This document shows positions 6,147 through 60,870 of a stretch of 64,000 nt of DNA, one piece after another. Position 1 is the stretch's first letter, and each line of letters begins with the position of its first letter. Below the pieces are notes generated by a model. That model was given only the letters and a program-made list of their open reading frames with translations, was not told the origin of the DNA and searched no databases. A program made the translations under genes and the position numbers. Origin of the DNA: Botryllus schlosseri. Its lineage: Eukaryota. The stretch is taken from the NCBI GenBank assembly GCA_051294905.1, contig CM119372.1, positions 15,378,001 through 15,442,000 of the forward strand. Direction: 5' to 3'.

Positions 6147-6252
6147 AGGATCGCCATTGTATGCGTGTCGTTTGACATCGTCCTATTTGTTCATCACTTG
6201 GCATTGTGTCTTATCGCATTGTACATTGTGTGTGACTACAGATGATAAATAT

Positions 6253-8335: not shown

Positions 8336-8399
8336 TTCAAGTAGAAACATACATAGAAATTTCCCCTCGATCAGAGATAGTCGTTAGGGCCTATATACC

Positions 8400-11500: not shown

Positions 11501-12271
11501 ACTGCCCCCTTATTGAGCTCGACATATCTTTATCGCACGAAATCCAGTACTGAAAGCAGTTCATATCTATTTGCAGCAATTAGTAGAGTAGTTTTGTACG
11601 TACACTATTTCTACTTCGACAGTTTTGATTTAGAAATGCGAATATTGGCATACTTAATTTTGTGTAGCAAAAAGTAGGGAATCAGACCACCTTCATGAGA
11701 GGTTGAATCGGCAGATGAGCCCAGGTCCAGGCAGGCTGTATAGCTCAAATGTTTCCCTATACAGAGCACATTTGGATAGGTGAAAACAGACTAAAGCCTA
11801 TCACTGCACCATCGATGTCCTTGAATTGGCTCTTAAAAACTTATTAACGCGTACACTTTCTGTGATACAGTAGTAATTCGTAATTCGATTTTTATTACAA
11901 TTTCGTTCTAAACCTATGATTTGGTGTTACAGTGCTGCCTTCAAATACCGAAGTTTCTTACACTCCAGTGGAACCTTTGAAGGTGTTTGAGCATGGAGAA
12001 TTTGAAGAACGATTGATTGCTACCATCAAGACTGGGATTAAACTTGTCATTGCGAAGCAAATGTGCTATAGTAAGTATAAGCCCAGTTTATGAGGATGTT
12101 GTTATAAAATAAGTGTTGGTACTTGCTCATATCTACTTGAAAATAACACATTATCCTCGAGTACTTCCGTGTTCTATATTGGTCGTCGGTTATTTTTGCA
12201 TGGTTTTCGTCATCTGGAATAGTTTATAGTCTGGTGATTCCTCCTGCTCTATACTTACTGTAACTGTGCAT

Positions 12272-35100: not shown

Positions 35101-38100
35101 ATTTCCTACGCTTCTTGACCTTTTTAGGAGAAAAGTTTTCGGGGCTATCTTTCGCAGATAACTTGATATTCGGATCAGTCTATCAGTAAAATCATATGAA
35201 CAAATCAACAAGGGAAATACAGGCACAATCGAAACTCTTCGAATTCATTTGTCGGAAATAGGGATTTCCTAAATCTCATTAACACATTTTATTACATGTA
35301 CTGAAAAAATAGATAGTATTACGAAAGCTTACATGCTGATCTTGTTGAGCGTTACCAGATGACGTCACAGAGACATCTTTCAATACAAGTTGTTTCACAT
35401 CCACAGTGTCAACATGACTTTGATCCTGCAGGAATGGAAAGGACTAGATCAGGAAAAATGTATGATTTTGGAGCAGACTAGTCGCAACAGAAGCTTAAAA
35501 AGTGTTCAAGCTCAATTATAAAAATTACTATTGGTATATCTTAAACATGCTACTTTGATTTCCAGTGAAAATGGGTCATTCTACCTGTTGGGGTAATTTA
35601 CTACGTTTCTTCAGCTTTTTAGAAGATTTGTTCGCGCCACCTTTCCCTAAGGACTTTATATTCGGGTCAGCCTATAAGCAAAATTATATGAACAAATCAA
35701 TACAGGCATTACCACAATCCATACCATGCAAAGACACAGGGTTCTCTAATACCAATAATACACATTTTTGCTCTGTAAAGAGAAATTTGAGATAGAAAAT
35801 CTTACATGGATATCTTGTTGCGAGTTGGCAGATGGATTCAGCGAGACATCCTTCAATTCAAGTTGCTCCACAGTTTCAACTTGACGTTGATCCTGGAGGA
35901 AAAGAAGGAGTCAGATTAGGAATAGTGTATCGATTGAGCAGCCTAGCGCCAACATAAGCTTGAAAAGTGTCTTGAAATTTTGTACGAATAATAGTCATTC
36001 TGTACCGGAGAATCACAGATTAAATTCCATTCAGTTGATCACTCAAGTCATCAAAGCAACAGAAATTCTAACAACACAATATTTCACCTGCTTCAAAACT
36101 TTGCTAGTTTTGCGCATCTTTTTTCTTCTCATCTCCTTTTAAGATAAGATTGTATGGATTAGAACCAGTAAAAAACTATTACCATACAAAAATACCTTTT
36201 TCGCTTGCATATCCTCCAATTCACTTCCAAGACTATGCACCGCAATCGGTTCAGCCTGTGAAGTGAGATAGTTATGAATTAGGATTATCTATCAAACTTG
36301 TTATTAAGCTTGAAATAAACTGGTCTGCCACACGTGACAAGTTATTCAATTTGTGATAAGCTTTGACTTCATCACATGGAAACAGAATATCATGCAAATA
36401 TACTTTCAGACTATATTCACATCTGAGTTTTCTATTAAACTCAAACCCAATTGATAAGCGTGACGGTTTATACCTGTTGTGGTGATGTGCTTTGTTTGAG
36501 TAGATCACCGCGAGACAAGTGTGCATCCTGAAATGTGATAAGGTGTGAGTATAGGAGCAGACAACCAGATGAAAATAAACAATGCACAATCACCTTTGGC
36601 ACGGATTGACTCCTGTATTTGATTCCTTCAATCGATCCATCCTTTCCATCATTCTAAATCGACAAGAAAATGATAGAGAATCAATCCATATTCAATTTTT
36701 TTACCAGGAAAATGATACCTGTTGCAAGCAAGCGTTGTCCCCGTGACCCGATGTTCTGTATTTCACTCTCCTCTGTAGAGTTAATTACAACTATTTAGAA
36801 ATTTGCAACTCAGCAGGGCTGTATTTACTTGCTAGTCTCCAATGAGCTGCAAACTATCTAAATCTATGCATATGGTTCAGTTGAATTTATTAAATATTTT
36901 ATCAGATCAATACACCACAAGATTGCAATTCAACGAAAAGACAGAAAGGTGTTGAAGCGAGTAGTCTTTGAAATCAGACACTCAACTGGGCCTAGGCGAC
37001 GTAAAGATGAGGCATGCACAGTATTGCACACTGGATGAAAAGTGAAAGAAGACAACATAAAAGGACAAGCGACAAAGTGAGGTGGCATGCGACGGAAGGT
37101 GAGATCGATATGGAAATAAGGCATTGGATAACCCAAGTTAACTTACCCTGGTTTCCTTATTTGGTTTATGTCGAGGTGGAGAAAGGTATCTCATATATTT
37201 GCAGCTCCCCAACTGCTCTATTTTTGGAATCTGAACGAATCACAAATCAAATATATTTACAAAGGAAGTGCATTTGGAATTTGTGCATTTTCTTACCGCA
37301 GCCATGCTTGCAGAAATATCCGACTGAGATTTTTCTACAATTGTCTGCCTTCCTGCTACGTCTGCTGGATTCGATATTTCCTTCAAATGAACAGATAGCA
37401 TCATTGCCAAGACTTTGCACCATGTACGAAGTCGAAATACCTGTTGTGTGGTTTTCTTCTTCGAAAGGCCTTTTTCAGACGCTGGTCGACGCTTCTTTTC
37501 GTATCTTGACTTCTGCGGAATTTTTCAAGTAAAGAACTTAGAGAATGCTACTTGAAGAGAACATAAAACAACAACATCATCACATATCAAGCACAATTTT
37601 TCACTTCCCCATTAATGATAACGCTGTACTATTAGACATTGAATTAAAACTTGACTGAATGCAGTCACTATTACGAAATTAACTAACTCAAATTTCGAGT
37701 AGTATACTTGGAATGGGAATGTAGATCAAATTGAAATGAAAATTTGTGTATCCAATATTACATCGCAAAAATTGGCAACAGATCACATACCCGTTGCTTA
37801 GGCATAGGTTGAATTCGACGTGGAATGCGTTTCAAATCCTCCTCATTATGCACCACCAATACCTGCTACAAGAAATCATAATGCGTCAGAAATGTTGCAG
37901 TAACTATTGCAGCAAATGCATACCACAGATTTTTTTCTGGTGGTGGATCTCGGTGATTGGTCCAGATCATCATTCTCTAGCACCATTTTACCACATTTTC
38001 TTTCACTCTAAAAAATAATTACACACCTCAATGCACACTCAAAAGCTCGAACTAAAAGGGTACCTGAAGACAAGCTTTGACCTCCTGCAGAATCGACTCA

Positions 38101-41100
38101 GGATTAGCCTTCTTTCTTGGCTTTGACTTCTAAACAATATAGATAACATGTGAAAATTAAACTGTTAAGGTTATTAGGAAGCTCAGATCTGTATGACCTC
38201 AACATCACTGGTCGAACATACCATCGCAAATACAATATCATTAAAGTCAGATACATCACTAATGGATAAGGTTTCCAATGACACCAAAAGTAAACTTACT
38301 CGAGATCTCAGAGCCGAGTTATTGGGTTTCGACATCTGCTTCGGTTCACCTTGGTCACCGACATTCAAATGTTGTTTCTCCGACGCCTGTTAGCAATAGG
38401 CTCATTACATCGAACATAATAAGCTGAATTCAATTCATACCAAGGATTCCTGTATCATGTTTTCCAATGGAGATTCGGTAAAAGCAATATCACCAGATAT
38501 TATTTTGCCGTGTTTACGACCAGCCTTGTAAAGAGACATTTTTATATTAATTGGAGTCTTTCAGATATACTTGATAGGTAACCCACCTTTTTGTGGCTTG
38601 TTTCTTCCGTCGTAATTGATCTAGGCTTTGTTCTTCTCTCTCTTGTCCGCTTCTGCAAGGTATACATCCATTCCATTCAATGCATTTTAAAGCATATGTA
38701 CGTTTTGATGTATGTATCGCTGTATGTACACAATGTACATAGATATCTATTCCAATCACTTAAGAAGCCTACAGGTTATAGTGTCGGGTAGAGCATCAAT
38801 TTGAATCATCTGAGATACACAGAATTTATAGGAAAAGCATGTTCTATACATTAATAACAATAGATATCTGCAGAAGAGTATTGAATAGGTACGAAGAAAT
38901 CTAATAATTATCAATCACACGAAGATACAAAAAATATCAGAGGATCTAAGGGAGTGTATTTGATGAAATGAGAAACGACACTATAGGGAACTTACACGAG
39001 ATTTCACAATCTGACTTTGAGGTGAGTCAGATGCCCTCAATGAGCTGTCACGGTTCACATTTTGTTCCTCCAAATCCTAGCATCAAAGAGAAAGTTTCAA
39101 TAATTAACCCAAGTGGTAAAATGGCACTTGTAAGCAATTTCGTTCCACTCATGTACCGGCTACTAGTTGTGCCTAGGGCCGGTTGGCTGTCTGATTTCAT
39201 AACTACTCCAAGTCGTTTCGATATCTTCCAATCTTTTCATTGTATCAAAGTCTTGTGGTGTTTTGAAATGAGAAAATTCTTAATAAACTGATGGTGTAAT
39301 AGACTTCTACGAAGTGCTGTTTGAATGTCACAGGCGATATCTTCTATAGACATATTCAAAGTTACACCTCAGATGTTTCAATAATATTTCTACCTAATTC
39401 TATAATATTACCTTTTGCGGAGGGTTGTTGCCACACAGATCTACTTCATAGAGGACTTTTTGTTTTGAATGTGAACGGTGGGACTTTTTTTTCTGGAAAA
39501 TGATGGAGTTGAATCAGAGATAATGATGAAAAGTGGAGAGGTTTCAGAAAAATATAATATTTCTATAAGCAGTCCATGATACTACCACACCAAACTCATG
39601 AGCGGTTCTGCGGATGCCCTCAAACTCCACTTACAATTGCAGTAATTATAATGAATTTGGAAGGCACGTAAATCATGCTACAGATCAAATCAAACAACAG
39701 ATATTGCATGAACTGATTGAATCCTTACTCGAATCCTCTTTCCTGAACTTGCGTCACTGGAATTTACAGACAACTTGTCCAGTTCGCCTCTAATCGACAA
39801 AGTCAAATCCTGTAAGATTGATATACTTAATTTTTTCAATCATGGACTTTAAATTAAATAATCCCCTTACCAGCATTCGACCATCACCATTTTTGAATGA
39901 ATTTCTTTGGTTCCGCTGCACATCATTCAACTTGTTAGGCATCTTGTTCTGGAATGTGTCAAATAAAAATCAAATCAACCAGTTAGATCACAGGTGAGCA
40001 AGACCTTGGGCAGAATGCAACCATCAAAGAAGTGTCGCCAAGTGGGACCTGCAAAATCGGTTTCAATCATGTGGTTTTCCTTAAACTACTCATGAATTTT
40101 ATATAAAGTCCGAAATCTGATATCGAACTTTATCTCGTCACCATTTCGCAACGAGATAGTAGGCCTTGCAACTACCATAAAGCCTATGTCTGCCCAGGGT
40201 TTCACTGCGCTGTTGATGTCTGGCATGCTTGTGCAAAAATGTGAATTTAGTCTGAATTAGATCCTAAAATAACTTACTTCTTCGAGCGCAAGATACTCTT
40301 TTACTAATGTCAAGAACGGCAAATTCCGAGGGTCATATTCGCTGCCACTGTCTTCCTTTTCCTATTAAAGTGAGAGTATCAAACTAGATATATAATAAAG
40401 ATTAGAAATGGTATGAAATCCCACCTCAAGATAATTTTTTGACACAGGTTCTTCTCGCTAAAAATTGAATAGATTTGTGTAAATAAATGTGATAATTATA
40501 TTCAATGGAGATTAATGCTGCTTACTGCACAAGGCATACAGGACAATGGACTCATGCAGGATACCAAACCCTTCCAAGCTTTCTTTATACACTGAAGACA
40601 ATATTACTTCGTTACCATTTGTATATTGACAAGCGGTAATACAAACTTACATTGCAATCTCTGTCAATGGGCTGGAAGTTTCGGAAACTAGCAGGATTCA
40701 CATATCTTCCTGGTGAGGAAACCTAAATAAAAATCGTGATGCATATCTAGCAAGGATACATCAAATACAGTATGACATTTTATTCAACTCACGCTGTTAT
40801 CCTGTTCCACGGGAGGGAAATGAAAACCGATCGAAGATGACGGAAACGCATCTTTAGCATGACAAATTGTAGCACTGAAACAACATGATGCACAAATATA
40901 AGAAACAATGAATGTTTCTTTTTAATGCAATCATTTTCCACACAGATTACCTACGGCCAGAGTGGAATTGGTGGCAACGTCACGTGCAACTTAATTCCGA
41001 AGACAACTACTGTTTCCACTTTCCAGTCAGACACACTGTTTTACTGATTTCGAATCGCAATAAAAATATAATACATGGTGCAGCAATACGATCCTTACGG

Positions 41101-41115
41101 GTTCAAGTGGACCAT
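20121..41115 (-). CDS. Multi-exon gene of unknown family, copy B (~50 small exons; charged low-complexity body, K/E-rich exon, conserved C-terminal region)
   Basis: A chain of AG-exon-GT units with open frames, e.g. EKEDSGSEYDPRNLPFLTLVKEYLALEE (40278-40361), VLVVHNEEDLKRIPRRIQPMPKQR (~37790-37861), repeated KKIKNFPNFET exons (33186-34700) and the K/E-rich exon (~24440-25117). The last coding exon KVVPDIDIKSAIKK...EATVT* ends at 20121. The start ATG at 41115 is tentative. Confidence 0.72.
22075..23377. mobile_element. Non-autonomous hAT element
   Basis: TIR TAGGGCGATTTTTTTT; 8-bp TSD CTGATAAG; GGTCAAA subrepeats; decayed hAT C-terminal motif TTAAV*RSFSILGKLL at ~22500-22590. Confidence 0.9.
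22710..23120. mobile_element. Inverted pair of Penelope-type pLTRs with degenerate hammerhead motifs
   Basis: A minus copy at 22710-22875 and a plus copy at ~22995-23120 of the same repeat found at 7413, 52670, 53380 and 54866. Confidence 0.75.
25572..26996. mobile_element. Non-autonomous piggyBac-like element
   Basis: TTAA on both sides; TIR CCTTACTCCCGCGG / CCCTTTTCCCGCGG; single TTAA at the arm-A site (~10101). Confidence 0.85.
25641..25716 (-). mobile_element. tRNA-derived SINE head
   Basis: A box TAGCTCAGTTGG and B box GGTTCAAGTCC on the minus strand; no clean acceptor or anticodon stems. Confidence 0.55.
27703..28587. mobile_element. hAT MITE with ATCCCGGGAT subrepeats
   Basis: TIR TAG(C/G)GTTGGGAC; exact 8-bp TSD CTAGCGGT (27695-702, 28588-95). 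Confidence 0.9.
27884..28393. mobile_element. hAT Charlie/Buster-type MITE
   Basis: CAGTGGCCTCAAAC…GCGGCCCGC … GTTTGGGACCCCTG; flanks GTCTAGAA/ATCTAAAC fit a diverged nTCTAnAn target. Confidence 0.7.
33186..34700 (-). repeat. Tandem two-exon module (~320 bp period, 5 units) inside gene copy B
   Basis: Exons of ~114-117 nt (…KKIKNFPNFET…) alternate with 69-nt exons (VDKVLKDSDLILEEITQE…), and the introns are also homologous. Copy A has 3 units at 2986-3862. Confidence 0.85.
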
Positions 41116-43509
41116 TGCAGCAGTGATGGAGTTTAAAGGCCACGCTATAATAAGTTGAGTCTCACGCCATAAATAAAGTGGATGGTTGGAACATCAACAG
41201 AATAATACACAATTCAGTACTAAACAAAATAAGGAATGAATGAAATACAATCACAATGACAAGAGATTAATAGGAGATGAATAAATGCACAGAGCTGTCC
41301 GTTCAAAACTAATAAACATGTTGGCAACATACGATTATCGAACACACGGCAATTGCAATGCAAAGCAGTTGATAGCCTACGGTACCTCCTACGGTAGGCC
41401 TACATTGTGACAAAAAGGTGTGAAAACATAATAGTGTATAGTTGTGCCACCCGATCTACCGTAAGTTAATTTAGTGCGAATGCAAATCTGAACGTATGAA
41501 CAAATACAACGGTATATTCCTTTGCCTATTTGCAAAATTCGAAGAGCTAAGCTAAGTGATGACTGTCAGCTAAAAAATTGCTCTACACTTCACAGTAGCT
41601 CGTTAAGAAACACAAAAGACGATAAGCAAATGCAAAAGTTTTTACCTGCTACGAGGGCAAGAATTGCGCATTCGATAAGACGACATCGCTATCCAAGTAT
41701 TCGAGGCTCTTCACAAGGATAAAACTACTCGATAATGAAATCCTGTAAAAATATTTCTGAGATATTTCACTAGTTATTATGACATCACAATTTGTCACGT
41801 GATCTATCAGCTGACTGAGTTGCCAGGGAGCCAAAATTACAATATGCGTTGCCAGCTTAAACTCTTATATTTGAATGAAATTTTCTATTACTCAAATGAT
41901 CTGGCTATAAATCACCAACCAATATATATCGATTGTAGATTATTATGCAAAAGTTAGAACGGATTCGAAATTGAAAGCCTATCTACCGGGAAAGGGCGAT
42001 ATGTATTCTGGAAGCAGCTACCGTGACAGCAGCTGAATAATGAATAATATCTTATTGTTACGTCATATAGAGTCTCGTCATTATCGAAAGTCCACGTTTC
42101 AACCGCTAAAATAAACTGGCAAGGGTTTGCCGAACATGCAACGGCGTTTGGACTAGTGCACATTATTCAATCATGGGGATGCGATAATATTCGGTGCGAA
42201 TACAGTAACCCGCGACTCGTGAGCGTTTTTGAAATTTTTCAGCCTAGTCGCGTATATTGGACATAGACATAGGTTCACAAATGCTCGCATCGCGATTTGG
42301 CCAAATGCATACCTGGTTACAATGCAAGTCGCAAGTATATTCGTCTGGGAGTAGAGTTGATTTTGGACTTATTTATTCATAAGTTCAATAACATTTGATA
42401 TATACCTAAAAGAGAACTAACGTGCAACTCATGCTTTACGACTCTGGAGCAGCAGGTTATATCCGACTACAGCACGTTCCCAACAATGCATAATTCCTTA
42501 TTACAATAGGCAAGTCTCAGTCGTATATAATTTGTATTTTTGTAAGTTGTATAATTGTAGTTTATTCTCTAAGTAGAGTTAATTTTGGAGTTTATTCAGT
42601 CGTGGGAATTCGATAATATGATGTTTGGTATAAATAAAGTTTAATGTAGGCCTCCACTCCCGGCTCCACTAATGATTATCGAATGCAGAAGTCACCAGCA
42701 CCCGGCCCGCGAGGTCATAATTTGAGGTCCGCGACCTGATTTCAAATTTCGGAAGAGCGCTTAGTAGAGCATTTTGAATATTAAAATTGAATAAGTTTTA
42801 AAATGTTGAAACACAGATGTTTGATCGCGCGCAACCTATATTCCGTGCGACAAATGACTCTGGCATCCTGCCGGCTCACATCCTGAATTGTTTCCCGTGA
42901 AAACAGCTGGTTGGATGTTTTGTGCGGCTACAGTATACTGAACAGTAGTTCGGTCAAACCCTACAGCAAAATGGTGTGAAATAGTTTGCTAAATCTAGGA
43001 ATTACTCGCATGTTAATATTTTGGTAATTAATTGGTCACAGAGCCGGCGTAGACGGTGATTCGAAAACCAACAATAACCGCGCTCGCAAATTAACACTTC
43101 AAAAAAGTGTAAAATGGATCGCAAATCCCGCCATCGCTGACAAGATAATGTCTCGGACATAACCATCTTTAGTGACTTGGTGTTACAGATCGCTCACGCG
43201 GTGAAATTTTAGTAATCAGTTTGTCACAGAACTTGATTTCGCTGGTAAGATTTAATAAGTAACGAATAACAGAACCGCCAGTGTGGGTAACTTGAATAGC
43301 AACAAATTGTCACTTATTTCCGTCCTAACCCTAATCCTTTGTGAGGTTACCGCATACTCAAATAGGTGTGAAATAATTGTAAAATCATTAAATCATACGA
43401 TCACTCACAAAGGTAACGAATAACAGAACCACAACGGCGGCGACTTGAATACCAACAAATTGTCAATTGTCGGTATAACTCCATTTTTTTAGGAGTTCAA
43501 TCTTTTTGA

Positions 43510-46500
43510 AACTGAATATTACTTGACTTGACCAACTTTCAGCTCCGTTTTCGATTTCCACACAGTCGCTATAAGTTTTCACGCTTCTAGAATAGGATTG
43601 ACTTTAGTTGCGTCATAAGAATCATGATAATATTCAATCAATGTGATAATTTACCAACTCGAAATCTCACTCGCGCTACAAGTGAAGCTGAATTGTATCC
43701 GAATATGTTAATTTACCGCCTTGACATCAGGATAATATTATTCAAAGTCTGTAAACATGGTAATGTCTTATATCAATAATATTAAGAATGTTGATGGCGT
43801 GTTTGTCGGATTATTCACACAGTGATTTGAAACAGAACGTTGAAACTTACAACTTTATCATTGGTCTATCATTATTTTTTGTTGCAACTGAGTTTAGGGA
43901 AATGAAAGCGCTAGTACATCCCGACGTTCCAATATTTTACCACACTCAAAGGACTTATTCACAAACAACATTCACAAGTCGTAAATCCGATTTGGGCTTA
44001 CTTGATTATATCACTGCAACTTGCAAACTTGAATAATTCATCCTGACTGTACTCATATGACCGATATTTTTATTCAGCTGTAAAGCTCGTTACTATTCTG
44101 TAAGACAAAGTATTTACTAATCGGTGCATATACGACTTGACATAAACATATTATATTTTGAGTATACGAGATTTGAATACTCGTCCGATCAGGGACTGAG
44201 AATTAAATTACCACAAGTAAATCCGTATATTACACCGTAAAAAATATTTGAATGTCAGCAACTCTTTACGACATAGTTATAACCACATTAACTAAATTAT
44301 CAGCTACCCCGTCATGTTCATTCTCGAAATCAACGCAAACAATCATGATCACTGACTTGAGTTAACCACAAAACTGCATCAAGCTGTCGTATCATTCGCA
44401 TTCATCGATAGAGAATATTATTGACCTCATAACAACAAACTTTCGTTTTATTCCAACTACGAAAGATAATGCCTAATCGTAAGACTTGAAACAAACAAAT
44501 TTGTTCGATGATAACAGTCGTATAACAAAAAACACCGCCGCGATTTTATAAACCATTCATCTTGATTAACACGTCTGTGAATATTAGAACACAAGTCGAC
44601 AGACTTTCTGGTAAAAGTAGCATTCCAAATTGTAGAAATACATTCATTGTTGTCTATGTCATTCATACAAATTACATTTCTGCGACACCGAAGCAAAGTA
44701 TTATTTTTTATTTGAATAAAACAAATCGTTCATCTTCGACTTGTGGTTGTAAGGCTTAAACTAGTTGGGTACACTTATTGCTTTATATGTTAAATTCGGA
44801 ATATCAAAGACATTGGAATTGTACACCGTAATCTGGCGAATCTGGCAATCTGGTGTTTTGTATCATTGTTCATTCGCAGTATTGGAACCAAATATTATCA
44901 CAAAATCCAAATCACCGAAAGGTATTTTTCGGTTAATATGAATTTGAGTTGTAATTGAATTACTATCAATTTACCCACACAGAGCTAAATTCAGCAAGAC
45001 ACAGGAACATTCGTCGATAGAGAATATTATTGAACTCGTAAGTATTCTAAAAGAACTTTCGTTTTATTACAACCGCGAAAGATAACATCTAATCGTAGGG
45101 TAGAGTGGGGCAGCGCGCCTACCCTAAGCGGGAAACGTCATAATATCCACCAAACTGGTCGAAACGGGTTGAATTTCGGAATTTGCGCGCGAGATGTCGT
45201 CCCCACTCTGCCACGATCGTATGGAAAGTCCAAGTATCAATCATCATATGTAAAATTATCATTCATCTATGTCCACCAATTTGACGTTTTGTTTCAGGGG
45301 TGGGGCAAAACGCCTCCAATGGCTTTTACCCATTTATACCCTATTAAATATAGCATACCACTCGGTAACCGATAAATATTTAATCCCTATACATACTTCT
45401 CCGCCTCATCATGGCGTATCGGATATTTTAAAAACAAATTTCACCCAGAAATGCCAACTGATTATGAAAGTCAAAAACAAGTCGGAAGTTATTGAGACAT
45501 ATCTTGTTTAGTCGGAGGAATAGCCTATATTCCACAGCTGAATAGCAATTTTGATGGGAGTGACGTTCTCCAAGAAAGCATTCTTGATGAACCCATAAAC
45601 GACTACTAAGTCCACATTTACTGGACTTGAGGGGTGGGGCGTTTTACCCCACATATGGGGTAGGCGTTTTAGCCTCAAGGTCGCCATTGTTTGTGGATAA
45701 GCTACCAGGTGGTTTTTCTGTAAATTCACCTTCGGACTGGGGCTTAAATCCAACTACACGTAGTGAGAGCATAAATTGAACCGGAAAAGTCTCTGTAATA
45801 TCCGTTAAATATGACATTTCACTTGATTGTAAAAGGCTATCTTTTGGTAAGAATATGTGTAAAAGTCATAAAATCTCATAAAACATTACAAATCTTCATC
45901 CAGGTGGGGAAATCAAAGTGACAGTTTCGTCTGACCATTAGGCGATATTTGCGATAATGTGACGCATTCAATGCTTGTTTTGTTCTGTGATATTGATGGT
46001 GGGCGTCTTACCTCGCCTGGGCGTTTTACCCCACTCTACCCTAAGACTTGAAACAAATCACACATTTTTTGTCTTGAGTCTATAATATTTCCGTAACCTC
46101 TGAATATTATTTTGACTTGACCAACTTCCAGCTCCGTTTCGGATTATTTGCGCGACTGCTATATGTTTCAGACCTCTGGAATGGAGGTTGACTTTAGTTG
46201 TGTGGTAAGAATCACGAGAATACTCGATCAATATGCTAATTCGCCAACTTGAAATCCGAATATGTTAATTACCTCCTTGACATCAAGATAATATTATTTC
46301 AGATCCGTCAAATAGAGTTGCTTGTCTTTTTGATTATTTACATATTGATTTGAAAAATACAGACCCATGAATTCCACAACTTTATTAACAATCCAGTTAT
46401 TTTTTTCGTCGCTGGAGATGTAATCGTTAGTACATCTTACCATGCTCAAAAGAATTATACACAAAAACATTCTCAAGTGTTAAATCCACTTTTCACTTGC

Positions 46501-46742
46501 TTGATTAAATCACTACAACTTGCAAACGTGAATTAATTCACTCTGGTTGTATTCATATGACCGATTAATTCACTCTGGTGGTATTCATATGACCGATAAT
46601 TTTTATTCAACTGTAAAAGTCGTTAATATTCTGTAAGTAAAAGTTATTTTCTAATCGGTGCATATACGACTTGACATAAACATATTATGTTTCGAATATA
46701 CAAGATTTGATTACCTGGTCAATCGCAGAAGAGAATTAATTA
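43510..46742. repeat. Diverged direct duplication (43510-~44210 vs 46099-~46742; also 44400-44500 vs 45010-46060)
   Basis: Shared blocks such as CTGAATATTA…TTGACTTGACCAACTT.CAGCTCCGTTT and CTAATCGGTGCATATACGACTTGACATAAACATATTAT. Confidence 0.8.
45098..46041. mobile_element. TA-targeting (Tc1/mariner/pogo-like) non-autonomous element
   Basis: TA|GGGTAGAGTGGGG … CCCCACTCTACCC|TA. The empty site AATCGTAAGACTTGAAACAAA is at 44475. Confidence 0.88.
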
Positions 46743-47081
46743 GTAGGCCATACAATACGAAAAAAATAATATAGTTTTGACTCTTGGATAAATTTTATGG
46801 TGGTGTGTGATTGGATTAACTCGATATTCTCATAGCGCATAAACTGTACAATGGTTGACTATGTAAACTACCATGATTCAGTCATATGTTATTGGCATAC
46901 CTGGAAGTGTTGGTACTGGAGCAGTTTCTTGCTTGAGTTTGTCTGTCACGTATCCGACTTATCGAAATATTGAAAATAGTCCAACACAAAAATCACATTG
47001 GAGTTTTATTAGAATGAATATTAATTTTATTTTCTGATCATGAATTCATGATAAACCACATATGCTAAAGGTGATAAGAGG

Positions 47082-47291
47082 ATGTACCATCAATCAATAC
47101 TTATGGATCATGATGAAATTGAAATTCCTTACGGGATCTATCATAAAACTACGACCGAATTGGATGTAAAGAATATCGTGAATGGTCTCACGGAGAACTC
47201 TCGCATGTACGAGTTAGAATTCCGCCAATGCCATCTCAATGAGAATCTTGTAAAGATGATATTGGACCAAATTCACGAATTTGAATTTGAG
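47082..47291 (+). pseudogene. Isolated exon-like ORF, possibly LRR-like
   Basis: Open frame …VKNIVNGLTENSRMYELEFRQCHLNENLVKMILDQIHEFEFE followed by donor GTAAAC; no intact downstream acceptor found. Confidence 0.3.
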
Positions 47292-47497
47292 GTAAACACA
47301 TTTACACATTCCACTCACAGTCACTGAGCATTATAAACCACGTTCAATTTAAGCATGTTAACCGTATAATATACTGAGGTGGCTTAAATAAAAAACTTTA
47401 GTCATGACCGCATTGTTTCATATTGATATTGTTATTACGGGGAAATTGAAGGTATCGTGCCGAGCAATGCTTAATTGCACACCGGTGTAGCCATTTA

Positions 47498-49500
47498 TCG
47501 CAATGCTAACAACCAAATCCAATTCGCCATCGGTCCAATAGGACTCGGTCTCAATCTGGTGGTCACGGCCTCGATGTCGATGTTGATGTCGATGTAGGAG
47601 ACAACACTCTTGCCATCGCAAAGGCAATGGCTGACGCCAATGCTAACAACCAAATCCAATTCGCCATCGGCCCAATAGGACTCGGTCTCAATCTGGTGGT
47701 CACGGCCTCGATGTCGATGTTGATGTCGATGTAGCAGACAACACTCTTGCCATCGCAAATGCTATGGCTGACGCCAATGCTAGCAACCAAATCCAATTCG
47801 CCATCGGCCCAATAGGACTCCGTCTACATCTGGTGGTCACGGCCTCGATGTCGATGTTGATGTCGATGTAGCAGACAACACTCTTGCCATCGCAAATGCA
47901 ATGGCTGACGCCAATGCTAACAACCAATCCAATTCGCCATCGGCCCAATAGGACTCGGTCTCAATCTGGTGGTCACGGCCTTGATGTCGATGTAGCAGAC
48001 AACAAACACTCTTGCCATCGCAAATGCTATGGCCGGCGCCAATGCTAACAACCAAATCCAATTCGCCATCGGCCCAATAGGACTAGGTCTCAATCTGGTG
48101 GTCACGGCCTCGATGTCGATGTAGCAGACAACACTCTTGCCATCGCAAATGCTATGGCCGACGCCAATGCTAACAACCAAATCCAATTCGCCATCGGCCC
48201 AATAGGACTAGGTCTCAATCTGGTGGTCACGGCCTCGATGTCGATGTTGATGTCGATGTAGCAGACAACACTCTTGTCATCGCAAAGGCAATGGCTGACG
48301 CCAATGCTAACAACCAAATCCAATTCGCCATCGGCCCAATAGGATTCGGTCTCAATCTGGTGGTCACGGCCTCGATGTCGATGTTGATGCCGATGTAGCA
48401 GACAACACTCTTGCCATCGCAAATGCTATGGCTGACGCCAATGCTAACAACCAAATCCAATTCGCCATCGGCCCAATAGGACTCGGTCTCAATCTGGTGG
48501 TCACGGCCTCGATGTCGATGTTGATGTCGATGTAGCAGACGACACTCTTGCCATCGCAAATGCTATGGCTGACGCCAATGCTAACAACCAAATCCAATTC
48601 GCCATCGGCCCAATAGGACTCGGTCTCAATCTGGTGGTCACGGCCGCGATGTCGATGTAGCAGACAACACTCTTGCCATCGCAAATGCTATGGCTGACGC
48701 CAATGCTAACAACCAAATCCAATTCGCCATCGGCCCAATAGGACTCGGTCTCAATCTGGTGGTCACGGCCACGATGTCGATGTCGATGTTGATGTCGATG
48801 TAGCAGACAACACTCTTGCCATCGCAAATGCTATGGCCGACGCCAATGCTAACAACCAAATCCAATTCGCCATCGGCCCAATGGGACTCGGTCTCAATCT
48901 GGTGGTCACGGCCTCGATGTCGATGTTGATGTCGATGTAGCAGACAACACTCTTGCCATCGCAAATGCAATGGCTGACGCCAATGCTAACAACCAAATCC
49001 AATTCGCCATCGGCCCAATAGGACTCGGTCTCAATCTGGTGGTCACGGCCTCGATGTCGATGTAGCAGACAACACTCTTGCCATCGCAAATGCTATGGCT
49101 GACGCCAATGCTAACAACCAAATCCAATTCGCCATCGGCCCAATAGGACTCGGTCTCAATCTGGTGGTCACGGCCACGATGTCGATGTCGATGTTGATGT
49201 CGATGTAGCAGACAACACTCTTGCCATCGCAAATGCTATGGCCGACGCCAATGCTAACAACCAAATCCAATTCGCCATCGGCCCAATAGGACTCGGTCTC
49301 AATCTGGTGGTCACGGCCTCGATGTCGATGTTGATGTCGATGTAGCAGACAACACTCTTGCCATCGCAAAGGCAATGGCTGACGCCAATGCTAACAACCA
49401 AATCCAATTCGCCATCGGCCCAATAGGACTCGGTCTCAATCTGGTGGTCACGGCCTCGATGTCGATGTAGCAGACAACACTCTTGCCATCGCAAGTGCTA
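47498..49500 (+). repeat. Tandem array of 15 near-identical units, mostly 125/137/143 bp, derived from a coding repeat
   Basis: The marker GGTCACGGCC occurs at 47561, 47698, 47835, 47971, 48100, 48225, 48362, 48499, 48636, 48761, 48904, 49041, 49166, 49309 and 49446. Length varies mainly by GATGTY hexamers. Confidence 0.97.
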
Positions 49501-50494
49501 TGGCCGACGCCAATGCTAACAACCAAATCCAATTCGCCATCGGCTCAATGGGACTCGGCGCCAATGTGGATGGTGATCATTCTGGCGGTCACCTCGTAGA
49601 AGTCGATCTAGCAGTCAACACACTTGCAATCGCTGACGCAATTGCTCATGCCAAAGCCAGCAACCAATTTCAATTCGCCATCGGCCCAATGGGACTCGGC
49701 GCCAACGTAGAAGGTGATCAATGATCATTCTGGCAGTCACGAAATCGATGTCGATGTAGAAAACAACATTTTTGCAATCGCTGTCGCTATTGCTCACGCC
49801 AAAGCCTACAACCAATTTCAATTCGCCATCGGCCCAATGGGACTCGGCGTCAATGTGGAAGGTGATCATTCTGGCTGTCACGGCGTCGATGTCGATGTAG
49901 AAGACAACACTCTTGCCTTTGATGACGCAATTGCTCACGCCGAAAGAAACGACCAATTCCAATTCGCCGTCGGCCCAATGGGACTCGACGTCAATGTGGA
50001 AGATGATCATTCTGGCGGTAACGGCGTCGATGTAGATGTAGAACAGTGGCTCCCAACGTGACTGATATCGTCCCCAGGGGGCGATTTGACGGTCTAGGGG
50101 GGCGAAAATAACGGAGGGGCGACAGGGGGGCGAAAACGGACGAAGGTGGTGATGCTATTGCTCACGACAACGCCAACAACAACGTCCAATTCGCCATGGG
50201 ACCAATGGGACTCGGCCTGAATGTAGATGGTGATCATTCTGGCGATCACGGCGTCAACGCAGACGTAGCAGACAACACTCCTGCCATCGCTGAAGCACAT
50301 GTCGCTAGCGGACTCGCAGTCGATGTGACCACCGACGGAGGTTAAAGGACAGTATGGCGACCTCTTCGCTGGTTTGAGCATGGGCGGAATCAACCTCAAT
50401 CTCGGAAACAACGCCGGTGCTAAAGCAATCGCAACCGGCGGACCTCACTACGGAAGCAGTGATGCTATTGCTCACGCCAACGCCAACAACAGTT
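49500..50494 (+). pseudogene. Disrupted repeat-protein coding sequence (141-bp / 47-aa units rich in D, V, A, N, G)
   Basis: Units such as DVDVENNIFAIAVAIAHAKAYNQFQFAIGPMGLGVNVEGDHSGCHG. It is broken by a 7-bp duplication at ~49720, a hAT-like end at 50044-50137 and a stop/frameshift at ~50343. Confidence 0.75.
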
Positions 50495-50691
50495 ACTGTG
50501 ATGAAATATGTGGTATAGGCGACAATGCGGTGTGAACGGAACCACGCATTCCGGTATCGAAATTATATTCATCGATAATTTCGGTAAAACATATTTGCCA
50601 CTCCATATCTACGGTGCGCGAAACGCAACGAAAATTCTGGGTATTACGTGACTTTTATGAAAATGAAATGTTGTTACTACGTGAAAACAGC

Positions 50692-51776
50692 CCTTTGCAC
50701 AACGGAAATTCAAATTCTCCTGTATCAATTGGTCATTCTACCAAGATTACAGAGGAGTATAAAACCATAAAATTTGTCCTTGAAAGGCTTGACTACAATA
50801 CTCATATGTGTCTCATTTCTTTTGACTGGTAAATGGATAATTTTCCACTGATTTAACAAAGTGGTATAGCCTACCTAGTAACCCTATCAAACGAGAAGCT
50901 TAAATCTGGTGTCGGGTATATTCGAATACCGATGAAAGATTCCAATTTCACATTAGGAAGGAGTTCACAGCATGTCATTTCTCCTAAGATGTAGTAAATA
51001 AAACTTTTTAGATGATCGCAAAGCACCCAACTACAAACAGTTGGTCCGGAAATTCGTATCTGCATATCGAACACTTGAGCACAAACATGAGCATAAAAGC
51101 TCACTTCCTGTTCAGTCATCTTGATATATTACCTTATCATCTTGTTGATTAGCAAGGGAAGAGGTTCTACCAAGACATCAGAACAACAAACGAAAGATAC
51201 CAGAGCAGATGAAATGAACCATTGCGCATATTATATCAGACTATTTCCGGAACCTTTCGAGAAACTGCACTAAATAGCTTACAGGCGAAAATCGTACAAA
51301 AAACAATTTCGATTTAAAATATATCAGTAATCTTGTATTGTAACTGATTATTTCAAATTTATGATAGGTGGTTGACGAAAAACTGATGGAATTAATGTCA
51401 CGTTATTTGAGTATCTAGGTAAATAGTTATATACATGACGGGAGTTTATTTATGTACATGATATCCGTGAAAGTCAGTAGCTATGATAAATCCATTACCC
51501 CTAAATATAGTGCTGTTGCTGTATTTTGATTTAAAATGGTCTTCTGTGTGTAAAAATAACAAGTAGATTGAATTTCTAAACTTTATAGTACCACTAAACC
51601 GATTTTATATCTAGTCAATACCGCGAAAATGAGAGATTTTGGTCAAAATAGCCCCATGGGTTATCTCCACAACAAGGGCCAATTTGAAAAAACTAAGGTC
51701 ATATTCGGAATCAGTGCCCTTCAGAACCCCCAAAACCACTCTTACTTTGTCTGCCTAAAATATGTGTTGACCAGTG
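50692..51776 (+). mobile_element. Decayed Chapaev3-like transposon (transposase remnant and right end)
   Basis: Remnants LHNGNSNSPVSIGHSTKITEEYKTIKFVLERLDY, LSNEKLKSG and QGxRFYQDIRTTNERYQ; terminus …TGTGTTGACCAGTG. Confidence 0.75.
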
Positions 51777-51837
51777 TTATCAGCATTCTTTCTGAATTTC
51801 AAGTTAGAATCGTAGTAGGATTGGACATGGATTAGGA

Positions 51838-53237
51838 CAGTGGTTCTCAACCTTTTTCGCTTCGCGGACCCCTTTTCATCGTCACAGACCCTCGCGGACC
51901 CCCTCAAGTTCTAGTTCAATTTTACCTCTATTATGGTGCAACAATCATCTGTCTTGTGCAAATATATGAACTGTGTGTAGGCTTGTGATAAACAGCAAAA
52001 TAATGCTTTTCTTCAAGATAACATCATACTATTTATGTTGAAATTGGTTGACTTTTATTATTTCAAAGCTAATTTTGCTGCTGTATTTCTTGAACTACGT
52101 GGTTGTGTTTTGAAAATCCGCGTCTTCGATTTGATACGAACGAGGAGTGCCGAAAACCATTTCCGCAAAGATAGGTGGAAGCTAATGCAATATTAACGCA
52201 TAACGCTTCCGACGATGTATGATCGCAACATTTATGGCACCAGAATGAATTAAGAAACACATATTTTGTGATCATATCACGTCCAGCATCTAGCGCAGGG
52301 CTTGCAGATGGTTTCTACCGTCAAAGTGAAATCCTAATCCAAAATTCGAGACAAATTTTATGCTCCAAATAATGGATCCACATTTTCCAACCAGAGAAAG
52401 ACTGTCATGAAACGACTTGTTCTGTTCGGGTTTACATAAATATATTTACGAGCAAACATTTTCGACCATGAACAAATGACCATTAACAAGACAAGGCTGC
52501 ATACCAATACAACTGGTGATTGAATTTCAGGGTTGGGGCGTAATGCTTTGATAGCAACGAAACACTCCTTGTTCATAAAGAAATCAGCCTGGTCGATAGG
52601 GCATTCGCACTAAGAATGCGCCAAATCTGATAGCCGAGCTTTGAGAGCAGGTGTATCAATTGTCCGATTTATGACGAGTGTCAGCCGAAAATATTCGGGT
52701 TCATTTCAATGTGAACATACTCTTCAATTGTATATTACAGTCCTGTACCTCCAAGAAGCAGTTCCTTGTATTGGGACAAATTATCAAAAACTCCGGAAAT
52801 TTTTTTTCAAACGACTGTTCAGTGCTCACTAATGTGATGAGACTGACAAATTCTAATGGAGGTTTCGCAGACATTACGAAGTCACCCTGATTGACGTTAC
52901 TATTTCCATATTTTTATTTTTTCCACAAACCCAAACAAAACGTCTCTAAACAGCAATATGTTTGTATCAGCAGATTATTGGAATATTGGCAATGAAAATG
53001 AGTTTCCACACTACGATAGTCCATGTCAAACGATTATTATGATCATAGCCTTTATAAAGGGTATTAAGGCTATGTTATGATGATATGAGTCACGAGGTTT
53101 TAGCAGTTGTGGTGCGAAACCGCCTCATGCTTTCTCAAAATAAAAAATAAAATAAAAATTAGGTTATCAACAATTTTAAAAATTTAGAGGCCTCGCGGAC
53201 CCCTAGGGGTCCGCGGACCCCCGGTTGAGAATCGCTG
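51838..53237 (-). mobile_element. hAT Buster/Charlie-type deletion derivative
   Basis: TIR CAG(T/C)G(G/A)TTCTCAACC; exact TSD GATTAGGA; minus-strand dimerisation-domain remnant SEAL…ASTYLCGNGF at ~52120-52215. Confidence 0.9.
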
Positions 53238-53441
53238 GATTAGGATATCAAAATTCCAAATCCGCTCATCTTTGCCGTGTAGCATTGCAAGTTCCGCGGT
53301 TCGCTCGTTTCGCCATTTAGAGTTGCCAGTTGCTGATTCTACGTCGCTTGCGCGCGCAGTTCCGGTTACCCGATACATATTTTGTGATACGATTGTTGAT
53401 ATACAATGTTCTTTCCAATTCTCTACTAGTTGCTGACGATT

Positions 53442-53475
53442 ACCCCTGACGAGTGTCAGCCGAAAATATTCGGGT
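53442..53475 (+). ncRNA. Minimal type I hammerhead ribozyme motif (Penelope-type)
   Basis: ACCC-CTGACGA-G-TGTCAGC-C-GAAA-ATAT-TC-GGGT: full catalytic core, stem I ACCC/GGGU, palindromic AUAU loop III, UC cleavage site. Confidence 0.8.
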
Positions 53476-53626
53476 TCATTTCAATATGAATATACTATTT
53501 AATGGTCATATTTTAGTAGCCTAGCCTAGCCATAATAACAAATAGTGATATGGTACTAAGTTCAAGTATAATGGTACGTAATAATACGCTGTTCTTTCGA
53601 ATTCTCTACTAGTTGCTAACGATTAC

Positions 53627-54865
53627 GGGTCAAGTGTAGAATACGGCCAGTGATCCCCATGACCATCACCGATCAATGTTTCACATGAACATGTCAAAAC
53701 TCATAGTGCTTCACATGAACACGTCAAAATAAATTGTTTTTATTTTGCCTGTGGAGAGTCGGATATTAGGGTTGCCGGAGGTGGGACATTAGGGTTGCCG
53801 GAGGTGGGAGATTAGGGTTAGGGGAGGTGGGATGTTAGGGTTGCCGGAGGTGGGATATTAGGGAAGGGGGATATTAGGGTTGCCGGAGGTGGAATATTAG
53901 GGTTGAGGGAGGTGGGATATTAGGGTTAGGGGAGGTGGGATGTTAGGGTTGCCGGAGGGGGGAGATTAGGGTTATATTAGGGTTGGGGGTATATTAGGGT
54001 AGCCGGAGGGGGGAGATTAGGGTTAGGGGTATGTTAGGGTTGGGGGTATATTAGGGTAGCCGGAGGGGCTGGGGTTAGGCCATCCCAAGATTAAGGTTGG
54101 GGTGATGGATATAGATCTCCTAACCCTAATATCCCCTCCCCCAACCCTAATATCCCACCTCCGGCCACCCTAATATCCCATCTCCCCTAACCCTAATATC
54201 CCACCTCCCCCAACCCTAATATTCCACCTCCGGCAACCCTAATATCCCATCTCCGGCAACCCTAATATCCCACCTACGGCAACCCTAATATCCCCTCCCC
54301 CAACCCTAATATCCCACCTCCGGCCACCCTAATATCCCACCTCCCCTAACCCTAATATCCCACCTCCCCCAACCCTAATATTCCACCTCCGGCAACCCTA
54401 ATATCCCATCTCCGGCAACCCTAATATCCCACCTCCGGCAACCCTAATATCCCACCTCCGGCCACCCTAATATCCCACCTTCCCCAACCCTAATATCCCA
54501 TCTCCGGCCACCCTAATATCCCCCTCCCCCAACCCTAATATCCCACCTCCGGCAATCCTAATATCCCCCTCCCCCAACCCTAATATCCCACAACCGGCAA
54601 CCCTAATATCCCACCTCCGGCAACCCTAATATCCCACCTCCGGCAACCCTAATATCCCACCTCCGGCAACCCTAATATTCCCAGCATCCCTGCTCCCCCA
54701 ACCCTAATAGCCCCTCCGACAACCCTAATATCCGTCAGTCCGTCACGCCACAGGAAAGAAAAACAATTTATTTTGATGTGTTCATGGGAAGCATTTGTTG
54801 GTGTAATGTGAAACAATGATCTGTGATGGTCATGGGGATCACTGGCCGTATTCTACACTTGACCC
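53627..54865. mobile_element. Foldback (Merlin-like?) element made of inverted TTAGGG-containing ~23-bp minisatellite
   Basis: TIR GGGTCAAGTGTAGAATACGGCCAGTGATCCCCATGACCATCAC; 8-bp TSD ACGATTAC. (ATATTAGGGTTGCCGGAGGTGGG)n is followed by its reverse complement. Confidence 0.9.
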
Positions 54866-54905: not shown

Positions 54906-55234
54906 TCATTTTAATATGAATATACTATTCAATTGTATACGTAATAAGTGTAGCCTACGTCCGTGTATATTGATGGCAAGCTTAAAAAATCCCACATCGG
55001 CTTACCGTTTATTTTTGAAATATATTATAATTCTCGTATAGATATGCTAGATCTATAAAATTACCAAAAATTCTGCGTTGTATGTATTGTGGTGGCACAA
55101 TTTCAACCTGAATGATTTTACCGCATCCTGGATTGTACAGCCCATGGTATGCAGCGCTGTTTCTTTGAGGGAGGAGCACCAGTATACTGTTCTCTTTATC
55201 ATCTTTCTTGATGTGATTGGCTGTAAGTTCACCC

Positions 55235-55783
55235 ATGGTAAAGAGAAGTATTGCAGACTCTTCAAGTTCACTGTTGCATGGAAAAGACAGACCGAAACAG
55301 AGTCGATATTTCACTCGTAGAAGTACACCAGTCAATCCGCATTTAGTCACAAAGAGATTGGCATGGATTCCCCCGAAATCGCCTTACAAGCTTATTCAAG
55401 AGACTTTGTTTCATGACCCATGGAAATTGCTTATTGCAACAATATTTTTAAATAAAACCTCTGCAACTCTAGCAATCCCTGTTTTATGGAAATTTCTTGA
55501 ACTGTATAGAACACCCGAATCCGTGCAGCCGAGCAGTCGTCATCATATAAGTGAATTACTACAACCACTGGGATTGAATGATTTACGTGCCAATACTATT
55601 GTTAAGTTCTCGAAAGAATACTTGAGCAAAGATTGGAAATATCCCATTGAACTCTACGGCATTGGAAAATATGGCAATGACTCGTATCGGATATTTTGCG
55701 TCAACGAATGGAAACACGTGAAGCCCCGAGACCATAAGTTGAATCTCTATCATGACTGGCTTAAAGACAATGCTCCATATTGA
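55235..55783 (+). CDS. MBD4: MBD4-type G:T/U mismatch DNA glycosylase (HhH-GPD domain only), intronless
   Basis: [32 protein letters not shown]…LQPLGL…[20 protein letters not shown]…[11 protein letters not shown]; in-frame stop at 55214-16 upstream of ATG 55235. Confidence 0.93.
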
Positions 55784-59000: not shown

Positions 59001-60729
59001 AACCTAAAGCCTAACCCAACCATAACTCCAACCCTAACCTACCCCTAACCCGTAATTTAACCGACATGCTCATGTGTCACATGCCAAATTGTTGCATGCC
59101 GAACTGTCGCATGCAGTAATGTCGAATGTCCACGGACCGGCAAGTGCAAGTAGTAGTGATTTTCAGGACGTGTCAAGCAAGGATTGTAACCAAGTCACAA
59201 GGTTCCTAGTCGCAAGTCAATTTCACTTTTATGGTTGTGACTGTAGTCATTTTCAATTCACCACCGTGTCTAGTCCAAGTTCAAGCAGGCGAGCAGAGAT
59301 TTGAGTCATATGACTCTAGTCCAAGTCATTGTGTTCACTGTTAGGTTTCGAGTTTGAATCTTGTTAAACCTACTTTTAACAAATCTACTTAAGGATATCG
59401 AATGTTTCGCATGCATAATATGCTAATTATCCTCACTTTTAACAGTTTCTGGTCATATTTCAAGTACCAATACTAATAGAAGAAATGCCAATAACATGGT
59501 ACCTTTACTATTCATCGATATTACAATGAAATGTCGGTGTTTGGTGTCCGATTTTCGAGTCATACCAAAAAATCGCGACTCGAGTCATTACAACCCTGTG
59601 TTGTAAAAACGATTGGTTGAAAACGTACTCAAATCAGTACTTTGAAAAATTAGATTGGGATAACATGCATATTGACGCCACTAATGACCGCGCAATTCTC
59701 AAAAATATATTCTGCTGCCATAATACATGGTCAATATCGCTAGTTGTTATGACTACTTGGCAAATCGAAAAAGGTAGTAGTCTGACTTGTACACTGTTGA
59801 AGTGGAAGTAGTCTAAACGTGGCTACTGTTCAAAGTAAACTCTAAATTTAATTACAACAAACGCATTTTGAATGTTATATTGGAAACTTCATTTCATAGT
59901 GTCTTTTTGACTCTAGATATTTACATGTGGTTCTATTGAAGTTTCTGCAAGGAGAAGCTCGCGAAGTCCTGTTAAAAACCACTAACTTGATTGTTAATAT
60001 TTGGCATCCTTGAATGAAATGCAAGTCGCTATTTACCATTACCATTGCCTCTATTATACTATTATAATAAGTGTCACTTATTTGCATTGTCCGAATTTAA
60101 CAAAGTTTGTTTAAAAAAATTCATAGCTTTTGCATAATAACTTGTCCGAAATGAGTTGTAGGCAACTTTAAACAATTTTTTATGGCACTTGCGCGCACCA
60201 TTATGACACACGCCCAAAGTAGACCATGAACTTTCAATTGTGACACCTACAAAAATATGTTCCAGACTTCTAAATACATTTAAAATTTCTTCTTTTGTTT
60301 CTCCAATTAATGGACAATTGCCCAACTTGGAATTGAGATATAAAATTCTAGAAACTCACCACGGACCGGTACCGATCCCCGGACCGGCGGTTGAAAGCCA
60401 CTGCATTAGACGACATTACAGTGTTTTCCATCTCAGATATGCCACCCTAAATTCATTTCGTTGGAGAGTCGATGTTGCTATTTCTTCTGGTGCTTTGAAA
60501 CGATTACTGGAGCCATCAATTGTAATGGAATTGGAAACAAGTGATGGCAAAGCGCAGCTTTTTGAGGTTGGTGTCATATTATATTACAAGTTCTCTTTTG
60601 CACATGTGTCTGCCTTTCAAACTCCAGGTCTCAAAGCAAGAATTCCACGACCTGAGATACTCTGTTGCAAATGTGCTGAAGCAGATGCAGCGGATGGAAA
60701 AGCGATCTGTTTTACAGATCAAGTCGTGA
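56025..60729 (+). CDS. COMMD5: COMM domain-containing protein 5; exons 56025-56142, 56664-56853, 56910-57002, 60437-60566, 60628-60729
   Basis: The spliced frame reads MAGKIERSNFLGSSMPME…LQLAIRQP…FRWRVDVAISSGALKRLLEPSIVMEL…FEVSKQEFHDLRYSVANVLKQM*. All junctions are GT-AG with compatible phases. Confidence 0.9.
57214..58740 (-). mobile_element. Decayed Chapaev3-like transposon in COMMD5 intron 3
   Basis: Minus-strand remnants KLNDL…, GLLEELGIPIYKSSEWQKSIDSSKRTIKC..RNGN; same terminus family (ACTGGTCAACACA) as 51776. Confidence 0.75.
58862..59135. repeat. Dispersed repeat with CAGCATG subrepeats and degenerate CCTAACC core
   Basis: A similar element with the core in the opposite orientation lies at ~4945-5125. 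Confidence 0.5.
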
Positions 60730-60870
60730 CTAAATCAGCTGTAGTTGCATTGCAGTGCTTGTGCAATATGTTATTTTATTTTGTAAGAATGAAAAATAAA
60801 TCTTTTGCGTAACAGTACTTACTTTTCATTCAGTGTGCGTGTATGCCTCTTTTTTACTGCGCCTATAAGC

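Follow-up and report, generated by a model that had tools for sequence, protein, structure and literature searches.

Among described systems, those closest to the locus reported here are minisatellites, a coding repeat in a human gene and an arthropod gene built of short open reading frames. The consulted part of a review gives minisatellite units as 10-100 bp and names rDNA spacers and transposons as their seeds (PMC5615363). In the human MUC1 VNTR in ADTKD, an indel in one coding repeat unit opens a repetitive alternative frame, as set out in the excerpted portions of three articles (PMC5843638, PMC11704794, PMC12458345). For tarsal-less/polished rice/mille-pattes (tal), the consulted section of the report describes a transcript with defined limits, translation that was demonstrated, a motif shared across arthropods, and rescue by genetic means (PMC1852585). 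Here, in a 64,000-nucleotide stretch of Botryllus schlosseri DNA (the window), we describe a tandem array that is most probably a young minisatellite inside a pseudogene fragment, and for which protein function is not expected. A preliminary description of the locus had raised the possibility of a satellite that arose when a single unit of a dead gene was broken; this reading is strengthened by four more lesions in the fragment and by an expressed relative that is free of at least one of them.

The young array (47501..49529, plus strand) consists of a partial first unit and 15 units of 125-143 bp, each without the same 16 bp. Anchored on CAATTCGCC, the 15 units lie between 47520 and 49529 and measure 137 bp (n=7), 125 bp (n=4), 143 bp (n=2), 136 bp (n=1) and 129 bp (n=1). 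The length variants stem from an inner run of GATGTY hexamers, except that the 136-bp length reflects a 1-bp loss in young unit 3 and the 129-bp length a 4-bp gain in young unit 4, which together sum to +3. At the deletion junction, marked here by a slash, all 15 units read CTCAAT/CTGG (CTACAT/CTGG in unit 3), and the intact counterpart of the missing 16 bp is found at 49566-49581. These observations agree with the preliminary description on three points, namely that the upstream units lack 16 bp (15 of 15, with a common junction), that their length is 125 bp or 125+12/+18 bp (classes of 125, 137 and 143 bp) and that two units carry 1-bp and 4-bp indels. As in a minisatellite or VNTR, the 15 units are near-identical and stand head to tail at a single locus, with a mean divergence of 2.9%; the old units downstream differ at 23-24 of 141 bases (about 17%). 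The tandem array receives a TRF score of 3403, which is far above chance, and its 5′ end falls mid-unit, without an in-frame ATG.

To compare the locus with independent reads, 4 of 24 listed sequencing runs (X1, X5, X19 and X23) were mapped at 85% likeness on 49375-50900, a region that comprises the last young unit and the old part; reads from any of the 15 units are expected to pile on the single mapped unit. Among the listed runs with a small share of the sampled words, X5 was the one used. In the DNA run X1, 21 contigs with a summed depth of about 2,050 cover position 49495, against 22.8 on the neighbouring single-copy units. In X5, a sole contig covers this position; its depth is 32, compared with 34-41 for the old units. 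The X5 contig across the junction is 155 bp long, corresponding to a 125-bp loop plus a 30-bp overlap, and is identical to the window unit at 48985-49109 (the consensus); at the deletion junction of the last young unit (AAT/CTGG, 49440..49441, plus strand), X5 contig 9 crosses without a gap. Other letters at 49562 and 49626 in X5 represent another haplotype. Taken as relative depths, contig depth being no copy number and contigs dropping variants, these data suggest a second haplotype with about one deleted unit and hence a recent amplification; a summed depth of 300 at 49407 in X5 may hide further young units. The apparent single unit of X5 would also fit an array inflated by assembly or read errors from a locus with one or few deleted units, as would the 0.53 of sampled words present in the best DNA run and the absence of long reads. 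We regard such inflation as very unlikely, given that the young units show private as well as shared variants and three length classes, and given the contig number and depth in X1, which may be the source sample. A 1-base gap at 49407 in X1 was rejected as support for the unit-3 deletion, as the place is mismatched.

The array is followed by about 4.3 older units of 141 bp, or 47 codons (49440..50043, plus strand), in which the ancestral frame is open in four of four units. Stops number 6 and 8 in the other two frames, and the ancestral frame also has the lowest pN/pS (0.66, a weak signal). Judging from these frames, the old units were formerly coding on the plus strand. The length of 141 bp attributed earlier to all downstream units holds for two of the four anchor intervals and fails for the others. 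One of these is 148 bp long and contains a 7-bp duplication (49715..49728, plus strand), which shifts the frame, introduces a TGA at 49722-49724 and is unchanged in X5 contig 11. The other is 227 bp long and contains a piece of a dispersed MITE-like element within the repeat (50044..50147); loose ends at 50072 were observed in X5, X19 and X23, and X1 contig 1 crosses the left junction with 0 other letters. The end motif of this piece may be of hAT type, whose ends it resembles. Beyond the insert lie one copy of a 309-bp (103-codon) unit with one extra base near 50342 (50148..50457, plus strand) and the start of the next 103-codon unit (50458..50492, plus strand), which is cut off by a dispersed repeat beginning near 50493. 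This dispersed repeat (50495-50693) matches 18118-18318 of the window, and each of the four runs has loose ends where it starts, at 50493 or 50494. The 103-codon unit is acidic (11 Asp/Glu vs 2 Lys/Arg) and rich in Gly, Ala, Asn, Asp and Val, and shares homology with the 47-codon unit in its first part; the homologous coding repeat extends to about 50492, past the end first assigned to it. The fragment lacks both a start and recognisable domain exons, and it is cut at the 3′ end. Its 16-bp deletion, 7-bp duplication with a stop, MITE-like insert, 1-base insertion and truncation at both ends are the lesions of a pseudogene.

The sequences around the fragment gave few matches. Among 52 flanking frames of at least 55 aa (38000-47490 and 50495-53700), none reached the curated cut-off in Pfam, the sole listed match being Imm50 (E 0.004). 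On the plus strand 200 bp upstream of the array, a 63-codon exon-like frame (47103-47291) ends in GAG/GTAAAC, the slash marking the exon end, and has no Pfam or useful PDB match; we take its leucine pattern to recall that of LRR exons. Farther upstream, 43512-44180 and 46100-46714 form a diverged direct duplication. Two elements with terminal inverted repeats were noted by eye, at 45096-46044 and 51837-53238. We also considered the fragment as part of a gel-forming mucin and rejected this assignment, as VWD-C8-TIL is absent from the 52 flanking frames and from the repeat pieces, and a PTS domain, for which the consulted part of the source gives at least 40% Thr+Ser, is absent as well (PMC4948705). 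Ser, Thr and Pro together account for 3-4 of 47 residues per old unit and for 11 of 103 in the long unit.

More widely, genes are sparse in the window, which is animal DNA of about 38% GC and contains large inverted duplications. A giant inverted duplication (1-15520 vs 37952-19687) spans about 38 kb, has arms that are mostly 70-89% alike and a nested 1.6-kb palindrome (12269-13914), and resembles a foldback-type element. Each arm carries one of two copies of a Lys/Glu/Arg-rich frame of 236-289 aa without a Pfam match (10563-11273, plus strand, and 24381-25250, minus strand). Head-to-head arrays of a 23-bp TTAGGG-like repeat (53753-54733) sit within another inverted repeat (53627-54066 vs 54865-54386). 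An uninterrupted MBD4-like glycosylase C-terminus (55217-55783, plus strand) is mostly 58-74% identical to animal MBD4, and no upstream part was seen; the best 120 matches listed bear animal names only, and the frame is possibly a processed copy. A COMM domain match (60207-60812, plus strand; E 3.7e-9) is probably an exon of a COMMD gene.

In addition to the lesions of the fragment itself, the sequencing runs reveal an expressed relative. In the raw RNA run X19 (12.9 million records, 6% of the run), reads cover 50140-50496 to a summed depth of about 14-37, and other letters appear at 50184, 50260, 50281, 50294, 50305 and 50458. All 12 of 12 X19 reads lack one base at 50342/50343, which identifies the extra base of the window copy as a frameshifting insertion. 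Furthermore, read ends that overhang before 50148 (11 X19 reads and 2 X5 contigs) match 50442-50457, indicating that the tandem unit of the relative is 310 - 1 = 309 bp, or 103 codons; a joint from 50457 to 50148 in X1, listed with one letter between, does not fit this length and would make it 310 bp. There is thus an expressed relative, with a tandem unit of 309 bp, which is without at least one lesion of the window copy, and homology to a transcribed relative, here with evidence at the RNA level, is a further attribute of a pseudogene. The DNA run X1 shows a different distribution, with a summed depth of 32,000-84,000 in four bins (within 49426-49476, 49834-49884 and 50395-50496) and of 600-3,200 at 50191-50394, where X5 and X19 depth is high. 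From these depths we infer that there may be two related repeat families, one at high copy number in DNA and one more strongly expressed.

The parent family is, in our opinion, the more valuable lead, as it is expressed, has a 103-codon acidic repeat and found no relative in Pfam, the PDB or large protein collections. Specifically, none of 4 repeat pieces reached a Pfam family at the cut-off (VWD, C8 and TIL included), PDB sequences gave 0 matches to the repeat, and the ESM Atlas, queried with the 47-codon repeat, gave one match at 0.76, which is below the useful range. A word-indexed search of longer proteins of up to 2,000 aa, a scope that leaves a giant parent outside, confirmed 0 of 485 and 0 of 1,400 candidates, and 0 of 188 pattern matches were confirmed in JGI metagenomes. 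A profile search of 1.84 billion representatives returned 1 match (E 7.6e-4), which was rejected as a probable translated CRISPR-type array, with a repeated short motif between unrelated spacers. AlphaFold, run on 105 aa without an alignment, gave a pLDDT of 37 and an unusable model. Among the articles listed on ascidian vWF/mucus repeats, small-ORF arrays from frameshifted minisatellites and gene-derived satellites, there was no description of the locus, and those that matched repeat peptide motifs were unrelated clinical texts.

The evidence for transcription of the locus itself differs between runs. In both raw RNA runs, X19 and X23 (10.0 million records, 13% of the run), depth is 0 in the bin 49375-49425 and in 49528-49833. 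In X19 the mean depth is 0.82 and 0.63 in the two bins of 49426-49527, equivalent to one or two partial reads, for which the relative is a possible source. A single read across 2 kb would amount to about 0.04-0.05 per kb per million, and X23 barely contains the expressed relative, which makes it a weak test of array silence. X5 is a run of unrecorded kind. Its contigs 9-11 span 49390-49800 with a depth of 32-41, 2, 2 and 0 other letters and 99% identity. Compared with X1, X5 is about 20- to 70-fold enriched on the unit of the relative and about 10- to 100-fold depleted on the dispersed repeat, and its depth pattern looks like that of RNA. If X5 is RNA, the locus is transcribed there at about a thousandth of the depth of the relative, and neither the deletion nor the 7-bp duplication is repaired. 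Some samples may show weak transcription. The X5 contigs also contain two opposite-strand joints, from 49444 to 50377 and from 49800 to 49881, which may represent an inverted allele, a fold-back RNA or a library artefact.

The contigs over 49390-49800, the RNA-library-like enrichment and depletion in X5 and its two opposite-strand joints would all suit a transcribed pseudogene that acts at the RNA level, with an RNA or fold-back RNA from the locus regulating the highly expressed parent, for example as a source of small RNAs. We consider such a role improbable. Fold-back joints are common artefacts of libraries or assembly, and the kind of X5 is unrecorded; comparable reads are absent from the raw runs X19 and X23, and the depth in X5 is about a thousandth of that on the relative.

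The young array also contains small reading frames. Fourteen ATG-to-stop frames (47627..49470, plus strand), one per unit, begin with ATG GCY upstream of the deleted junction; 13 of the 14 are 31, 35 or 37 aa long, and a broken frame (47901-47951) is shortened to 16 aa. At the first junction (47555) there is no ATG in the corresponding frame. Each small frame starts out in the ancestral frame, which its head follows, and ends with a tail read in the +1 frame. Successive frames are separated by a spacer of 29 nt in 14 of 15 units; in the remaining unit it measures 33 nt. The earlier statement that most units encode 31-37 aa with a 29-nt spacer was therefore accurate, and the layout corresponds to that of tal/pri, although the tal/pri motif LDPTGXY is absent from the array translations. 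Every small-frame ATG has a purine at -3 and a G at +4, and the tail is hydrophobic (best 19-residue Kyte-Doolittle mean 1.58). A further ATG at 49500 reads into the intact unit as a 74-aa frame and is an internal Met of the ancestral frame. On the opposite strand (47501-49529, minus), each young unit reads a Met-started frame of up to 34 residues with a signal-peptide-like hydrophobic stretch, which is antisense of the ancestral frame and stopped in the old units. Longer minus-strand frames of 107-115 aa were rejected as coding, being likewise antisense of the ancestral frame with stops in the old units.

A simulation of deletions provides a rationale for the small frames. We removed 1-30 bases (lengths not a multiple of three) anywhere in the intact unit 49440-49580 and repeated the product, which gave 2,820 frameshifting cases. 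An ATG frame of at least 30 aa per unit results in 96% of these, and the strong context (purine at -3, G at +4) is present in 58%. In the other three old units, 63-90% of simulated deletions give such frames, with 1% in the strong context. The absence of the strong-context ATG from old units, noted in the preliminary description, can accordingly be refined, in that this ATG is a property peculiar to the founding unit. The tail LAVTASMSM is already present in the +1 frame of an old unit. Because Asp-Val codons read Met-Ser and then a stop in the +1 frame, and because an internal Met already lies in the unit, a frame of 31-37 aa per copy follows without selection. Since 96% of simulated frameshifts give such frames, the array of small ORFs is expected by chance and is an expected by-product, unlike the tandem array itself. 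Tests of selection, hand-classified and of low power, are in line with neutrality of the small frame: 4 of its 15 distinct substitutions are synonymous, where 24% would be expected (p 0.52), and variant events fall at 7 per 29 nt of spacer against 16 per 105 nt of coding sequence, the spacer being slightly more variable (p 0.27, odds 1.8). In the ancestral frame, with equally low power, 7 of 21 variants are synonymous (p 0.22), and there are two further indels. As a general caution, strong-context small-ORF arrays can appear without selection.

These results bear directly on the second reading of the preliminary description, a new micropeptide array, in which one nascent polycistronic transcript would carry 13 near-identical frames of 31-37 aa amplified for dose. 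Translation could proceed by leaky scanning and re-initiation over the 29-nt spacers, or each frame could be released by spliced-leader trans-splicing at a TAG or CAG 26-29 nt before its ATG. The strong-context ATGs, the hydrophobic tail and the AG dinucleotides 29 and 26 nt upstream of each small-frame ATG accord with such a locus, as would transcription in X5, if present, and the operon frequency in Ciona, where about 20% of genes lie in operons according to the part of the source consulted (PMC2760879). However, the frames are the expected outcome of frameshifts in this repeat, constraint is not apparent in the low-power tests, and one of the frames has already been disrupted. In addition, each young unit contains 4-8 ATGs, the upstream AGs come after GATGTC repeats rather than a pyrimidine tract, AATAAA is absent between 47387 and 50997, raw RNA reads are absent over the left part of the unit in both of two runs, and neither of the two small peptides tried has a Pfam match. 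A micropeptide locus of this kind thus has only a slight chance of being correct. Equally doubtful is its fuller form, a polycistronic micropeptide gene caught at birth, in which a cassette from a frameshifted repeat of a giant secreted-protein gene would have been amplified from about one to 15 copies, transcribed somewhere and translated. That the product would be a membrane-seeking peptide or a decoy of the parent repeat, with a dose that varies between individuals, we hold to be similarly far-fetched. If true, this reading would show a polycistronic peptide gene arising de novo and expanding in dose inside a single species.

The preliminary description had also proposed that a repeated -1 shift would restore a long protein. 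Recoding at every junction, through a -1 ribosomal shift, RNA editing or an intron of 38-56 nt, could in principle yield a long Asp/Val/Ala/Asn repeat protein, in that a -1 shift at AAT/CTG rejoins the ancestral frame, removal of a GT...AG segment between position 28 and position 66 or 69 of the 125-bp unit would keep the frame, and the indels of unit 3 (-1) and unit 4 (+4) compensate to a multiple of three. The locus offers little to support this. A programmed -1 frameshift site is defined as a slippery heptamer X XXY YYZ, and 47498-49530 contains 0 XXXYYYZ heptamers and 0 runs of four like bases. The five candidate donors (GTCTCA, GTGGTC, GTCACG, GTCGAT and GTAGCA) are all poor. The rejoined frame would meet stops at 47949-47951, after the 1-bp loss of unit 3, and at 49722-49724, and has no upstream start. 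An X5 contig crosses the junction with the deletion kept and no skip, and no splice joint is listed in the unit. Finally, an intact expressed relative exists, so that nothing needs rescuing. These observations largely contradict the proposal, and we consider recoding exceedingly unlikely.

The young minisatellite inside a pseudogene fragment is the explanation that best accommodates these data, and a plausible course of events can be outlined. The genome would hold at least one intact transcribed gene with long tandem 103-codon acidic repeats, whose transcription is seen in X19. A piece of such a repeat region, consisting partly of 47-codon sub-units, sits at this locus and probably originated by duplication. 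The fragment has decayed through the observed lesions, namely the 16-bp deletion in one unit, the 7-bp duplication, the MITE-like insert and the 1-base insertion. The deleted 125-bp unit was presumably multiplied by unequal exchange or gene conversion, and slippage of the inner 6-bp run may have produced the 137- and 143-bp forms. On this account the locus illustrates neatly how a frameshifted coding repeat can seed a tandem array, and it may serve as a length-polymorphic marker.

The known systems help to place this array. Like tal, it has short ORFs that are nearly identical, follow one another on one strand and are parted by short spacers; in contrast to the features reported in the consulted section for tal, its frames are predicted, derive from a decayed long repeat and are without a detected homologue or detected constraint (PMC1852585). 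Like the MUC1 VNTR in ADTKD, it carries an indel in one coding repeat unit that opens a repetitive alternative frame (PMC5843638, PMC11704794, PMC12458345). In the excerpted account, MUC1 is a live expressed gene in which one unit is affected and one long frameshifted protein results (PMC5843638), whereas here it is the broken unit that was multiplied, within a dead host fragment, and every copy closes the new frame with a stop. In its workings the array resembles minisatellites and short euchromatic satellite arrays as covered by the consulted part of the review (PMC5615363). The unit here, at 125-143 bp, is above the range of 10-100 bp given there, the array is only 2 kb long, and its seed is a frameshifted unit of a coding repeat rather than an rDNA spacer or transposon. 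In common with those arrays, it shows local amplification of one unit, homogenised copies, length variants of an inner repeat and perhaps a difference in copy number between haplotypes.
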